Source: Escherichia coli (GTDB lineage: Bacteria > Pseudomonadota > Gammaproteobacteria > Enterobacterales > Enterobacteriaceae). Taken from it: a DNA stretch of 64,000 nucleotides. Every line of letters starts with the position of its first letter. Positions within the stretch are counted from its first letter, which is position 1. The notes under the pieces are model-generated. The model saw nothing but the letters and a program-made list of their open reading frames with translations. It ran no database searches and was not told where the DNA came from. This document shows, in pieces, positions 15,647 through 42,300 of this stretch. The DNA is taken from the NCBI RefSeq assembly GCF_030013205.1, contig NZ_CP122648.1, one strand, 5' to 3'. A program made the position numbers and the translations under genes.

Positions 15647-15947
15647 GGAAAAGCCGAGGGGCGTCAACCGAAAAATGACCAATGATGGTGAGGAAAAATC
15701 AGGGAAGTTGAAAAAAACTCATCTTAATTAGAGGCGATAAAAGATTTCTCTATAGCGCAATCCACCTCGCACGTTTTGACTGATATTCTGACAACACAGC
15801 GACACCTGGGCTTATTCGAAAAACAACGTCCTGCCACCGGATGGTGATGCTAAGGCATCTGATTCGGCCTGCGCCCTCGCGTAGGCCGAATACTGGATCT
15901 GCAAAATCAACTGGTAACAAACAGATGAATCAACTCAATACGTACTT

Positions 15948-17501
15948 TTACTTGATATCTTTCACGCGCATACCGTTGATCTGTTCATCCGTGATGGTGT
16001 TACCCGCTTTGAAGTAATCAACCACGGCGTGATAAACGTAATAACCGCCCGTTGTGTTACGCGCTTTCCCTTCGGTAAAGGCGGTAAAACCATCTCCACC
16101 ATCAGCAAGGAAACTCTGGGTGGCAATAGAATAAACTGTCGCATCTTCAATGGGTTTGCCATTCAGAGTCAGCGTGATTACCCGCTGACCAACCGGCTTA
16201 TTGCTGTCGTACTTCATTTCCAGGCCTTTCGATACCTGTAAAACGCCATTACTTAAACTTGCGCCGTGTTCCATCAAACTGCGTAATTGTTTACCCGTGA
16301 GTTCCATCGTCACCAGTTCGTTGGGGAACGGGAAGGTACTGATGACGCCGCCCATCGTAATCGCCCCTGCGGGGATCTCATTGCGAATGCCGCCAGAGTT
16401 GGTTAACGCCAATTGGGTGTTTTTACCCGCCGCTACCAGTAAAGCATCAGCCGCCAGGTTCCCGAGGGAAGCCGATTCACCATAGGCACGTTTTAATTCA
16501 ACCGGCGATTTCGCGACCGTTTGTTGCACCACTTCATCAAGCTTTTTATTCCAGCCGTCGATCACCTGTTTCGTTTGCGGATCGGGCTTCCACTCGTCGG
16601 CGTAAATGGTTTTAAGCTCGAAGTTTTTCACCGTAAAATCATGCGGCTTCTCTTTGTAGTCCAGTACCAGTTTACCCACATCAATCCCACCGCTGTCAGT
16701 GGAGAGGATGAGCGTATTGCCGACTTTAATCGGTTCCGGCGTACCCACATGCGCATGTCCGGTGATCAAAATATCCAGCCCTTTCACCTGACTTGCCGTC
16801 TGAATATCTTTATCCAACGCGCGACGCACATCGGTCCCTCCCATACTGGACTGGCGGGCTGGAACACCTTCGTGGATCAGGGCGACGGTCAAATCAACCT
16901 TGCCTTTGAGTTCATCGATATAACGTTGTAGCCATTTAATTTCATCGCGCGCTTCAATACCCACGCGCGTGGCAGCAGATACCGTATCGTTGAAGGCAAA
17001 TACTCCGTGCAAACCTATAACGCCTATTTTCACGCCGTCTTTTTCGATGATGGTATATGGCTTATCCCAGAATGATTTACTGCTGTTCTGATAAAAAACA
17101 TTGCCCTGCACAATAGGGAATTTTGCCTGACTCAACTGTAATAATGTGTTGTCCCAGCCGTGGTCAAATTCATGGTTGCCTATCGTGACGGCATCAAACG
17201 GCATAGTATTCATAATATCGATAATAGCCTTACCTTTGGTCAGGCTGCTGATATATGGCCCGGTAAAATAATCACCCGCATCAAAAAACCATGTCGCTTT
17301 ATTTTTTGCTTTTTCTTGCTTAACCAGCGTAGTGATATTTGCCCAGCCACCAATATCCCGTTTACCGTCAGCGATCCACGGCACTTTATAAGGCTCGACA
17401 TGCGCATGGAGGTCGTTGGTATAAATGATGGTGACATCTTTGGCGCAAGCCCAGAACGGCAATGTTAATGCGATACCCGCAGCAAGTATTTTAATTTTCA
17501 T
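15948..17501 (-). CDS. secreted bifunctional metallophosphatase/5'-nucleotidase family protein (UshA/CpdB-like)
   Basis: 517-aa ORF with signal peptide ([18 protein letters not shown]) and calcineurin-like phosphoesterase motifs (DLHAH…GDYF…GNHEFD…GHAH); sits in an insertion between metF and metL. Confidence 0.8.
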
Positions 17502-17633
17502 AAATAGTCCCTTTCAGTGATTTAAAGGATTGCTACATTACGTTCTGAAAGAGTTATTTATGTGAGAGTAATCACATCCACAGGGGAGCGTTGCCGGACA
17601 AAATCAACGACCTTGTGAAATCGTTGGTGATAT

Positions 17634-18350
17634 ATGTCGACTCTGTTTACGATTAATGCCTGCAAGTCGTTTGGTTGCCGTAATTTAGGGCAGCCAACAT
17701 CGACAGATTATAGCTGGCCCGACTATCGACTGGGTTATCCGGCATTGCACTGTCGGGCATGCGGAAGTTACCCGCCGTTGTTTGACGAGCAACAATTTCG
17801 TGACTGGTTGACAGTTCACTTATCTACTTTTGCAACAGAGAAAGGCCATTTTTGCCCGGTATGTTATGGTACAGATACGATTTGTTATGGTCACAATCCA
17901 CAGGGTTCGCAACGCATTCAATGCCGTAACTGCAAAAAAGTATGGACACCCAAACAATATCAGAAAGAAATAACGCCTCCTGAAATAATCGAAACGGTTG
18001 CTTTTCTCGTGCCATTTCAGGGAGTCAGCAGCGGGCAGAAACTGTATGTTTTAATCAGTTTTGATGCTCTTCGCGGTAATATTCTTCATCTTTCTACTAA
18101 TTACACGCAGCATCAGGCTGGAGAAAGTCTGCATTATCGATACAGAGGGAATGCAGAACCAGAGTTACACGAGAGTAATATTGTACAACGCGTTGATATG
18201 CGCGAAGCACAATTTCTACGCCGCAGTCAGTTTGATGAAATTCAGTATGGCAGCGCAGCGCTCAAACGCAATGCTAAAGGTGTTATTCTGCGTCCGGTTA
18301 TCACTGCACACGGGCATTTCAGAGTACTGATATTCTCTTCCCTACAGTAA
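17634..18350 (+). CDS. hypothetical protein with two CxxC-type Zn-ribbon motifs
   Basis: 238-aa ORF; CRACGS…CPVCYG…CRNCKK cysteine pairs; AT-rich; no core-genome counterpart at this position. Confidence 0.5.
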   Translation: MSTLFTINACKSFGCRNLGQPTSTDYSWPDYRLGYPALHCRACGSYPPLFDEQQFRDWLTVHLSTFATEKGHFCPVCYGTDTICYGHNPQGSQRIQCRNCKKVWTPKQYQKEITPPEIIETVAFLVPFQGVSSGQKLYVLISFDALRGNILHLSTNYTQHQAGESLHYRYRGNAEPELHESNIVQRVDMREAQFLRRSQFDEIQYGSAALKRNAKGVILRPVITAHGHFRVLIFSSLQ

Positions 18351-18478
18351 AAACACATGTAATTTCACACGAGTGTTTTTTAAGAGGTGCCATTATTACG
18401 GCATGGGCTGATCTGTTTCGCCAACAGCAAGGTGAGATTTGGTTTATTGAAGAGGAAATAGCTGACGATACCGATAAT

Positions 18479-18763
18479 ATGCCCTGGCGTTTTCAGAGAA
18501 CAACTTATCACGGCTGGTGGAAAAATCAGTGGCAACTCTGGGTTCAGGGAAAAAATCGTAAAATGGTATGTGCATTAACGGGCGGAAATATCAGCAAAGC
18601 TGAAATGCTCTCTTTAGCAACCAGCAGACATTTTATCGACTGGCTACATAAACAAGCAGTATTTACTCACAGCACCCCGCTTTCCGCAGGGCGCGTTACG
18701 CAAATACTGCTTTCTCTAGCTCAGGATTACAACAACTGCGCCAGGCGGTTAATATCCGACTGA
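18479..18763 (+). CDS. hypothetical protein; possibly the displaced 3' part of the upstream gene
   Basis: 94-aa ORF in the -1 frame relative to 17634..18350; its frame is open from 18329, overlapping the upstream ORF end; overlaps metL 3' end by 37 bp. Confidence 0.3.
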   Translation: MPWRFQRTTYHGWWKNQWQLWVQGKNRKMVCALTGGNISKAEMLSLATSRHFIDWLHKQAVFTHSTPLSAGRVTQILLSLAQDYNNCARRLISD

Positions 18764-23644: not shown

Positions 23645-23896
<252 letters not shown>

Positions 23897-23900
23897 CTAA

Positions 23901-26258
<2,358 letters not shown>

Positions 26259-26407: not shown

Positions 26408-27439
26408 GTGAGTGTGAAAGCGAAGAAGCAGGAAACTGCCGCGACCATGAAAGACGTTGCCCTCAAGGCAAAAGTCTCTACAGCGACCGTTTCCCGAGCA
26501 TTAATGAATCCCGATAAAGTCTCCCAGGCCACCCGTAATCGGGTTGAAAAAGCGGCCCGGGAAGTGGGTTATTTACCTCAGCCTATGGGGCGCAACGTCA
26601 AGCGTAATGAATCCCGTACCATTCTGGTGATTGTCCCGGATATCTGCGATCCCTTCTTTAGCGAAATTATTCGCGGTATCGAAGTTACGGCGGCAAATCA
26701 CGGATATCTGGTGCTGATTGGCGACTGTGCGCATCAAAATCAGCAGGAAAAAACCTTTATCGATTTGATCATCACCAAGCAAATTGATGGCATGTTGCTG
26801 CTGGGTTCAAGGCTGCCGTTTGATGCCAGCATTGAGGAACAGCGTAATCTGCCGCCGATGGTGATGGCGAACGAATTTGCACCGGAACTGGAGCTGCCTA
26901 CCGTTCATATCGACAATCTGACCGCCGCATTTGATGCAGTAAATTATTTATATGAGCAAGGGCATAAACGGATTGGCTGTATAGCCGGTCCCGAAGAGAT
27001 GCCGCTGTGTCACTACCGCCTGCAAGGCTACGTTCAGGCGCTGCGTCGCTGCGGCATTATGGTTGATCCGCAATACATCGCCCGTGGCGACTTCACCTTC
27101 GAAGCCGGAAGCAAAGCAATGCAACAGCTGCTTGATCTTCCACAACCGCCTACTGCTGTCTTCTGCCATAGCGATGTGATGGCGCTCGGCGCACTTTCGC
27201 AGGCAAAACGCCAGGGGCTGAAAGTACCGGAAGACCTTTCCATAATCGGTTTTGATAACATCGACCTGACGCAATTTTGTGATCCGCCGCTGACAACCAT
27301 CGCGCAGCCGCGTTACGAAATCGGTCGGGAAGCTATGCTGTTATTGCTTGATCAAATGCAGGGGCAACACGTTGGCAGTGGCTCTCGTTTAATGGACTGC
27401 GAACTTATCATCCGGGGATCAACACGCGCGTTACCTTAA
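26408..27439 (+). CDS. cytR: LacI-family repressor CytR
   Basis: ORF with LacI-type HTH (MKDVALKAKVSTATVSRALMNP); true start may be GTG at 26414. Confidence 0.9.
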   Translation: MSVKAKKQETAATMKDVALKAKVSTATVSRALMNPDKVSQATRNRVEKAAREVGYLPQPMGRNVKRNESRTILVIVPDICDPFFSEIIRGIEVTAANHGYLVLIGDCAHQNQQEKTFIDLIITKQIDGMLLLGSRLPFDASIEEQRNLPPMVMANEFAPELELPTVHIDNLTAAFDAVNYLYEQGHKRIGCIAGPEEMPLCHYRLQGYVQALRRCGIMVDPQYIARGDFTFEAGSKAMQQLLDLPQPPTAVFCHSDVMALGALSQAKRQGLKVPEDLSIIGFDNIDLTQFCDPPLTTIAQPRYEIGREAMLLLLDQMQGQHVGSGSRLMDCELIIRGSTRALP

Positions 27440-28490: not shown

Positions 28491-28582
28491 AACCCTCAAA
28501 ATCCCCCCCATCTATAATTGCATTATGCCCCGTACTTTTGTACGGGGTTTGTACTCTGTATTCGTAACCAAGGGGTCAGCTC

Positions 28583-29113
28583 GTGACAACTATAGTAAGC
28601 GTACGCCGTAACGGCCATGTGGTCATCGCTGGTGATGGTCAGGCCACGTTGGGCAATACCGTAATGAAAGGCAACGTGAAAAAGGTCCGCCGTCTGTACA
28701 ACGACAAAGTCATCGCGGGCTTTGCGGGCGGTACTGCGGATGCTTTTACGCTGTTCGAACTGTTTGAACGCAAACTGGAAATGCATCAGGGCCATCTGGT
28801 CAAAGCCGCCGTTGAGCTGGCAAAAGACTGGCGTACCGATCGCATGCTGCGCAAACTTGAAGCACTGCTGGCAGTCGCGGATGAAACTGCATCGCTTATC
28901 ATCACCGGTAACGGTGACGTGGTGCAGCCAGAAAACGATCTTATTGCTATCGGCTCCGGCGGCCCTTACGCCCAGGCTGCGGCGCGCGCGCTGTTAGAAA
29001 ACACTGAACTTAGCGCCCGTGAAATTGCTGAAAAGGCGTTGGATATTGCAGGCGACATTTGCATCTATACCAACCATTTCCACACCATCGAAGAATTAAG
29101 CTACAAAGCGTAA
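28583..29113 (+). CDS. hslV: ATP-dependent protease subunit HslV
   Basis: 176-aa [27 protein letters not shown]… (N-terminal Thr nucleophile). Confidence 0.95.
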
Positions 29114-42198: not shown

Positions 42199-42300
42199 GA
42201 TGCCGGATGCGGCGCGAACGCCTTATCCGGCCTACAAAAGTTTGCAAATTCAATAAATTGCAGAATTCACGTAGGCCTGATAAGCGAAGCGCATCAGGCA
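42199..42300. repeat. REP/BIME element (two inverted REP units)
   Basis: GATGCCGGATGCGGCGCGAACGCCTTATCCGGCCTAC and inverted GTAGGCCTGATAAGCGAAGCGCATCAGGCA. Confidence 0.7.

Follow-up and report, generated by a model that had tools for sequence, protein, structure and literature searches.

Positions 17634-18763 of a 64,000-nucleotide (nt) stretch of Escherichia coli DNA (contig NZ_CP122648.1 of assembly GCF_030013205.1; hereafter the window) carry two open reading frames (ORFs) that lie in different frames, raising the question of whether these are the remains of one gene, how such a gene came to be interrupted, and what its product did. The locus forms part of the chromosomal gene order katG-metF-5'-nucleotidase-[pseudogene]-metL-metB. 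It was found to be a genuine frameshift pseudogene, caused by the loss of a single A from a gene whose intact form belongs to an uncharacterised, transposase-related protein family. We place the probability of this explanation as a whole at roughly 85%; the role of DNA-binding regulator proposed within it stands at about even odds.

A one-base deletion in a pig-associated lineage

The initial annotation, made from the sequence alone, had described a 238-amino-acid (aa) ORF in frame 0 that stops at 18350 and a 94-aa ORF in the -1 frame, open from 18329, and had read the two as one ancestral gene of roughly 375 codons broken by a frameshift. The ORF list and its translation agreed with this layout. 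The -1 frame runs without interruption for 145 codons, from 18329 to its stop at 18763, overlaps the 5' ORF by 22 nt and has a translation that begins DILFPTVKTHVISHECFLRGA. Alignment with intact alleles, which read GTACTGAATATTC where the window reads GTACTGATATTC at 18324-18335, placed the missing A at 18330 and the codon change at CTG AAT ATT to CTG ATA TTC. The last native codon is that of L232 (18327-18329), after which frame 0 encodes IFSSLQ and a stop (ATA TTC TCT TCC CTA CAG TAA). Re-insertion of an A at 18330 restored an ORF of 376 codons, the product of which was 99.7% identical to the intact protein of CFSAN018748 and differed from it by G289R only, at a glycine downstream of the break that is nearly invariant in the family. 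Both this repaired ORF and the homologues described below, which are single ORFs, bore out the proposed ancestral gene.

Single-base indels are the commonest assembly error, and the closest intact allele, that of CFSAN018748 (swine, Denmark; 99.8% identity), has the extra A, as would be expected if the gene were intact in the living strain and the frameshift an error of sequencing or assembly. This explanation, which had been offered beside that of a pseudogene, was rejected because the same deletion is carried by 17 independently assembled complete genomes, of swine or wild-boar origin and 100% identical over 1,301 bp that include it. Four of these records were inspected (K_EC180, W13-16, EC556 and ETEC1748, from Korea, an O139:H1 wild-boar strain in France, Japan and Belgium, respectively), and all are flagged in RefSeq as a 'cytoplasmic protein', pseudogene, 'frameshifted'; the annotation of K_EC180 falls on exactly matching coordinates, with the 1,301 bp around the target 100% identical. 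The lesion lies in an AA dinucleotide, not a long homopolymer, and is accompanied by a second change at a nearly invariant residue, the G289R noted above. An artefact is scarcely credible, and only the pseudogene half of the original proposal was retained.

Within E. coli, the deletion has become fixed in a clade associated with pigs, to which O139:H1 and porcine enterotoxigenic strains belong. The deletion is confined to this one lineage and is recent, as the nearest intact allele differs by just one other substitution. The pseudogene call was already present in RefSeq, and the frameshift itself is routine.

Programmed -1 ribosomal frameshifting could in principle join both frames and still yield the full-length protein, in the manner of insA-insB' of IS1: production of the transposase of IS1, a relative of the family, depends on a -1 frameshift, and the shift required here is also -1. 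The initial annotation had considered this unsupported for want of a slippery heptamer, and inspection of the overlap (18329-18350) likewise revealed no X XXY YYZ heptamer, nor the A6C motif of IS1. The break falls within helix 221-235 of the RNase H-like domain in the predicted fold, not at the junction of DNA-binding and catalytic domains, and the other family members, the 99.8% identical allele included, are single continuous ORFs. Because of the missing heptamer, the break in the middle of a domain and the continuous relatives, programmed frameshifting was excluded as a hardly credible explanation. Two genuine, separate genes would be a practically negligible prospect; both ORFs have an ATG start, but homologues consistently have one ORF, the second ATG is the internal Met283, without an evident ribosome-binding site, and the break lies within one predicted folded domain. 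The features of the locus are listed in Table 1.

Table 1. Features of the pseudogene, its ancestral protein product and the divergent promoter region, in window coordinates
Feature	Position	Strand	Remarks
Whole frameshifted pseudogene	17634..18763	+	Ancestral gene of 376 codons; RefSeq name 'cytoplasmic protein'
Remaining 5' ORF, 238 aa, ATG start	17634..18350	+	Codons 1-232 native, then IFSSLQ out of frame and TAA
1-bp deletion site	18329..18330	+	One A of AA in CTG AAT gone after codon L232
3' gene part, codons 233-376, now in -1 frame	18330..18763	+	Holds 94-aa ORF 18479-18763, whose start is internal Met283
G-to-A substitution, G289R	18497	+	Sole other difference from closest intact allele
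Zn ribbon 1 (C10, C15, C40, C43)	17661..17762	+	Nearly invariant across family
Zn ribbon 2 (C74, C77, C97, C100), IS1 InsA / IS1595 type	17853..17933	+	NCBIfam NF050000, NF033558; PF03811; hhalign
RNase H-like (DDE-transposase-like) domain (predicted), four-stranded beta insertion and C-terminal helices	17985..18760	+	Interrupted by frameshift
Periplasmic metallophosphatase/5'-nucleotidase, 517 aa, signal peptide	15948..17501	-	Divergent partner, intact
ACCAAC box ACCAACGATTTCACAAG	17612..17628	-	First A exactly 52 nt from TGTGA of CRP-like site
Inverted repeat CAACGA-N10-TCGTTG	17605-17626		Contains box; directly before pseudogene ATG
CRP-like site TGTGAGAGTAATCACA (core TGTGAgagtaaTCACA)	17561..17576	.	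Shared divergent promoter region; consensus half-sites 10/10
Predicted -10 hexamer TAATGT of 5'-nucleotidase promoter	17535..17540	-	20 nt from CRP core; read from sequence
Predicted -10-like CAAAAT of family gene's own promoter	17599-17604		Box overlaps own promoter/leader

The intact gene and its protein family

The gene was present in approximately 1,837 of 5,426 complete E. coli genomes; the remaining matches extended over no more than the end of metL, and the gene therefore forms part of an island that genomes either have or lack as a whole. Intact orthologues, each a single ORF, were found in Salmonella, Citrobacter, Klebsiella, Enterobacter and the Vibrionaceae, so that the suggested check for homologues spanning both parts returned single ORFs across the Enterobacteriaceae. 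A search of 5.8 billion proteins retrieved 253 relatives. Among the best 120 of these, the full-length enterobacterial relatives measured 371-403 aa, were named 'cytoplasmic' or 'hypothetical' protein and originated from Escherichia, Citrobacter, Klebsiella, Enterobacter, Kluyvera, Pluralibacter and Pseudocitrobacter. Salmonella orthologues fell within the same size range. When 1.84 billion cluster representatives were searched exhaustively with HMMER, only 120 clusters emerged, including relatives of 400-570 aa at 20-40% identity. No description of the function of this family was found in open-access text, that concerning its Salmonella members and Vibrio nucleotidase regulators included, which is not proof of absence.

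Pairwise ratios of non-synonymous to synonymous divergence (dN/dS) between intact alleles were 0.09-0.19 over the whole gene and 0.09-0.27 over codons 233-376 alone. The intact gene is under purifying selection in both halves, and a coding signal was thus evident in the downstream part, for which the initial annotation had left its absence open. The E. coli alleles were unusually divergent and mosaic: L003 and L005 differed with a synonymous divergence (dS) of 0.93 over codons 1-232 and of 0.17 over codons 233-376, and alleles of the B2 type (L004) reached a dS of ~1.2 and had a different C-terminus. This mosaicism points to old allelic lineages and to recombination within the gene.

The family has decayed repeatedly, and K-12-like E. 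coli lack the gene entirely. For instance, in Salmonella enterica subsp. arizonae (L043) the first 125 codons and the upstream ACCAAC box (described below) are gone, codons 126-368 remain and the adjacent nucleotidase is intact, an independent inactivation by deletion; split ORFs of the gene were seen in other Salmonella. In a Citrobacter-like contig (L075, 2255-2980 and downstream), a Mu-like prophage encoding a CI-type repressor, a Ner-like helix-turn-helix (HTH) protein and a Mu transposase cuts the gene after approximately codon 238. The closeness of this cut to the frameshift in the window is probably a coincidence.

By its sequence, the intact gene is a member of a small gammaproteobacterial family with two N-terminal Zn ribbons, the second homologous to that of IS1 InsA. 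The paired cysteine motifs noticed at the outset (C40-R-A-C43, C74-P-V-C77 and C97-R-N-C100) were present together with a further pair (C10/C15), and their reading as a transposase-type Zn ribbon was upheld by NCBIfam, Pfam and hhalign matches to IS1 InsA. A Pfam scan of the E. coli protein returned nothing above threshold. Its residues 74-105 matched the NCBIfam IS1/IS1595 Zn domain (NF050000) and the start of the IS1 transposase model (NF033558) just below cutoff. Against the Zn-domain cutoff of 28 bits the E. coli clade scored 22-23 bits and four distant members 28.7-34.3 bits, the latter passing; against the transposase cutoff of 100 bits the E. coli proteins scored 19.6-22.5 bits and distant members at most 35.5 bits, and all missed it. 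Each of these two models matched 31 of 52 diverse family members, and Pfam Zn_ribbon_InsA (PF03811) matched 14 of the 52. A comparison of the family profile with residues 4-87 of IS1 InsAB', which comprise its Zn finger and HTH, gave an hhalign probability of 96.4% (E 1.2e-9).

The C-terminal domain showed no sequence match to IS1 InsB (hhalign probability 0.2%, not significant), which leaves kinship of this catalytic-type domain to IS1 specifically a putative one; a profile sequence search of the PDB also gave no credible match. AlphaFold2 models of two members (predicted local distance difference test scores of 95.4 and 92.1) indicated an RNase H-like fold of the aspartate-aspartate-glutamate (DDE) transposase type, matching solved members of the superfamily, which extends the suspected transposase link to the second half of the predicted protein. 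Foldseek searches of the PDB gave only weak matches, with low template-modelling scores, to Piwi, Endonuclease V and NurA, which fit an RNase H-like fold and are not specific. Conserved D, D and E residues were looked for on beta1, after beta4 and on the following helix, as assigned from predicted secondary structure, and only E247 was conserved: strand beta1 carries T/S121, and R/K220-P221-V222 follow beta4. The two canonical aspartate positions thus appear not to be conserved in the family.

Both likeness and difference were apparent in the comparison with IS1. InsA is itself a DNA-binding repressor, and the CxxC...CxxC Zn ribbon of InsA and InsAB' is homologous in the family, as is the HTH in distant members; in both cases an RNase H-type domain follows. 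In contrast to the 232 aa of InsAB', family proteins are 376-570 aa in length and have an additional N-terminal Zn ribbon, a beta-sheet insertion and C-terminal helices. They lack an InsB sequence match, conserved DD positions and terminal repeats, and are encoded by single-copy, syntenic genes that always consist of one ORF, the frameshift here being a mutation. Identity to the IS256/Mutator transposase ISCth4 (PDB 6xg8), other DDE transposases and retroviral integrases was 7-8%, with the catalytic triad unconserved and, unlike in those elements, no sign of mobility in the family.

That the locus might be a degraded mobile-element gene, as initially suggested, was not borne out. In favour of a decayed insertion-sequence remnant are the IS1-type Zn ribbon and predicted DDE-transposase fold, the name 'IS1 family transposase' given to relatives in some databases, and the occurrence of the gene-nucleotidase module at different chromosomal sites in different genera. 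On the other hand, E. coli genomes carry the gene at one place at median and two at most, and where a second copy exists it is a diverged paralogue (35-71% identity) accompanied by nucleotidase genes of its own, as seen in a genome scan with the narrower family alignment A4, A2 being too diverse. A search for insertion-sequence ends found no inverted repeats flanking the gene, its position between metL and metF is common to E. coli, Citrobacter and Salmonella, intact alleles are under purifying selection, IS1 transposase scores are 20-36 bits against a cutoff of 100, and the catalytic aspartates appear absent across the family on predicted secondary structure. A dead mobile-element gene is highly improbable. 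Since it fails the score cutoff and lacks catalytic residues, terminal repeats and the copy-number behaviour of an insertion sequence, the protein falls outside the IS1 transposase family. Several records that carry homologues of the gene are filed as plasmids or phages; the one inspected, NZ_LN868945.1 (Salmonella Senftenberg 'plasmid 3'), carries the chromosomal genes katG-metF-metL-metB-metJ and is probably a misassigned chromosome fragment.

Nucleotidase neighbours and the ACCAAC box

A 5'-nucleotidase gene was adjacent at nearly every locus with usable flanks. In the Enterobacteriaceae the gene was divergent from a periplasmic 5'-nucleotidase at every such locus, with a gap of ~132-138 bp; in Klebsiella and Enterobacter the chromosomal site is different, the gap is kept, and further nucleotidases and a Tsx-like channel are attached. 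At 17 Vibrionaceae/Psychromonas loci the gene instead lies 7-100 bp downstream of a 5'-nucleotidase, in tandem, with outer flanking genes that vary by species. The divergent partner is nupC-deoC-deoA-deoB in Agarivorans and Gynuella, and a porin, a class B acid phosphatase and a class II cyclic-nucleotide phosphodiesterase in one Salmonella lineage. The neighbours of the gene thus always included functions in scavenging of extracellular nucleotides or nucleosides.

The metL..metF island corresponds to genomic region GR31 of extraintestinal and avian pathogenic E. coli, the long form of which comprises Tsx and three UshA-like nucleotidases and which was proposed in 2026 as a putative nucleoside-processing system (PMC12928451). 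GR31 is the same island, and its layout matches that of locus L004; the published table (PMC12928451) lists no ORF in the ~1.5-kb gap where the gene sits. Compared with the long form, the island of the window is a short form, with one nucleotidase and the pseudogene.

The enterobacterial intergenic region was conserved far beyond its flanks, and contains an ACCAAC box and a CRP-like site at a fixed spacing (Table 1). The predicted -10 hexamer of the nucleotidase promoter would place the CRP-like site near -41.5 and the centre of the box near -93. In the nucleotidase promoters of the Vibrionaceae, ACCAACnCAAAAGGTAA is followed after 35 nt by a CRP-like site and, 19-21 nt beyond this, by a -10 element, and the same box-CRP arrangement occurs upstream of nupC in Gynuella and Agarivorans and beside the Salmonella Give-type gene. 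The box-CRP spacing was identical in Escherichia, Vibrio, Psychromonas, Gynuella, Agarivorans and Salmonella. A composite scan, in which [CT]CAAC had to lie at an offset of 52 nt from a CRP-like site agreeing with 8 or more of 10 consensus positions, gave exactly one match in most loci, always in the adjacent promoter, and one in the whole 64-kb window; 20 shuffles of all 804 kb of loci gave 0-3 matches in total.

The arrangement resembles that of CRP/CytR promoters (deoP2, udp, cdd and tsx), which control the same kind of gene, have a proximal CRP site at class II distance from the -10 and, as in the family promoters, a second protein site 50-53 bp further upstream. In E. coli K-12 the deo, udp and cdd promoters have a second CRP-like site 50-53 nt upstream of the proximal one, and the box may be said to hold the place of the distal CRP site because of this distance; no [CT]CAAC box was found in the K-12 deo, udp, cdd and tsx promoters. 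The differences are that an ACCAAC box replaces the second CRP site and that the candidate binder is transposase-derived instead of a LacI-family repressor. The possibility that the box is itself a weak second CRP site was rejected, since its CCAAC does not vary and the position shows no conserved TGTGA or TCACA half-site. In the larger islands, where the remaining nucleotidase and Tsx promoters were searched for further ACCAAC boxes, the only matches were coding, within the TNDL motif of nucleotidases.

Variations on these promoters were also observed. In five loci of Vibrio and Thaumasiovibrio (L059, L061, L064, L066 and L067), a LacI-type palindrome GCAAACG(A/T)TTGC (GCAAACGTTTGC) lies between the box and the CRP-like site, and a CytR- or PurR-like factor may thus provide a further input in some species. 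Upstream of the second nucleotidase operon of L004 (4760-4991), a CRP-like site TGTTACTAAGATCACA is preceded ~50 nt upstream by a GACC...GGTC inverted repeat, without an ACCAAC box; this repeat may be a variant operator, or unrelated. Within the window, a 343-aa ORF at 26408-27439 (+), ~8 kb from the nucleotidase island, appears to be cytR, judging by coordinates only, from its position beside priA-sized and ftsN-region ORFs. The cytR gene encodes the classical repressor of the nucleoside regulon; we know of no functional link between this putative cytR and the island.

Other features of the window include the overlap of the last 37 nt of the pseudogene with the 3' end of the convergent metL. 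Just past the metL stop (18727), the 3' end of the pseudogene contains an imperfect hairpin (18654-18712; arms of 27 nt with 74% complementarity, loop of 5 nt) that may be the metBL terminator, embedded in the coding sequence of another gene. Between metF and the 5'-nucleotidase gene is a GC-rich palindrome at 15862-15891, with 13-nt arms (ATTCGGCCTGCGC / GCGTAGGCCGAAT), that looks like a repetitive extragenic palindromic element or a terminator. Rfam matches above the gathering score were the L31 (rpmE) leader at 23864-23916 (-), the ClpQY (hslVU) promoter element at 28528-28585 (+) and the ES036 (CssrF) small RNA at 42237-42278 (+).

A proposed regulator and the consequence of its loss

Taken with the architecture of the protein, these promoters raise the possibility that the family protein is a domesticated transposase working as a DNA-binding regulator, a proposal to which we assign about even chances. 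In its fullest form, at somewhat less than even odds, the proposal is that domesticated IS1-like transposases make up a hitherto undescribed family, in which two Zn ribbons and an optional HTH are joined to a dead RNase H-like domain, and that its members would regulate the scavenging of extracellular nucleotides and nucleosides together with CRP in the Enterobacteriaceae, Vibrionaceae and related Gammaproteobacteria. The family protein would be the putative binder of the ACCAAC box near -93, in the slot of the second CRP dimer of CytR-type promoters, and, jointly with CRP at its site near -41.5, would control the neighbouring catabolic (5'-nucleotidase) promoter, as either an activator or a repressor. 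In the Enterobacteriaceae the same site overlaps the predicted promoter and leader of the gene itself, which would provide for autoregulation. On this model the dead RNase H-like domain would have taken on a new role, such as oligomerisation, contact with CRP or RNA polymerase, or ligand sensing. The concept is like that of the TnpB-derived TldR proteins, a case of a transposon protein exapted as a bacterial transcription factor, in that a catalytically dead transposon protein would control host promoters; the fold is unrelated and no guide RNA is involved here, such that the parallel is one of analogy only.

Several observations weigh against a regulatory role. The InsA-like HTH segment is present only in distant members, the enterobacterial clade, E. 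coli included, having lost ~60 residues there, which would leave only the two Zn ribbons for binding DNA in the E. coli clade. In the RNase H-like domain, acidic residues outside the canonical positions are conserved (144, 75% D/E; 201, 87%; 247, 100%, E), with which, on the predicted models, the domain might still be catalytic. The loci were collected through the family gene, so the box could belong to another co-occurring factor, and ribosome-binding sites and core promoter elements explain parts of the conserved intergenic sequence. It is also conceivable that the 238-aa product of the frameshifted gene retains activity as a residual DNA-binding fragment.

Some of the same observations would suit a protein that is an enzyme or accessory factor of nucleotide metabolism, such as a nuclease or nucleotide binder, with another factor binding the box. 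The RNase H-like fold, whose weaker structural matches include Piwi, Endonuclease V and NurA, the conserved D/E144, D/E201 and E247, and the absence of the HTH from the E. coli clade are all compatible with such a protein, and in the Vibrionaceae the gene follows the nucleotidase like an operon of enzymes. However, its partners are periplasmic, yet the protein itself lacks a signal peptide; a Zn finger and HTH of the InsA type constitute a DNA-binding module; the canonical active-site positions appear unoccupied; and in the Enterobacteriaceae the overlap of the box with the gene's own promoter is typical of an autoregulated regulator. An enzymatic or accessory role was considered unlikely on this evidence.

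The nucleotidase gene, the box and the CRP-like site are all intact in the window. According to the predicted fold, strand beta5, the beta insertion (which holds the invariant W295/W296/W300) and the C-terminal helices (which hold N367) are missing from the truncated 238-aa protein, and this product is most likely non-functional. If the family protein is a regulator, control of the still-intact 5'-nucleotidase gene has probably been lost or altered in this strain.

The frameshift matters as a lineage marker and a natural knockout; if the family protein does act as a regulator, the pig-associated clade would be a natural loss-of-function mutant. In thousands of genomes the gene is labelled 'cytoplasmic', 'hypothetical' or, wrongly, 'IS1 family transposase'. 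Should a regulatory role hold true, the family would provide a clear bacterial case of a transposase turned host transcription factor, and the CRP-dependent control of periplasmic 5'-nucleotidases and nucleoside uptake would gain a regulator that it has so far lacked, with relevance to phosphate and nucleoside scavenging and to adenosine production in pathogens. The fixed geometry of box and CRP-like site makes this a directly testable model, for which closely related intact and frameshifted strains exist.

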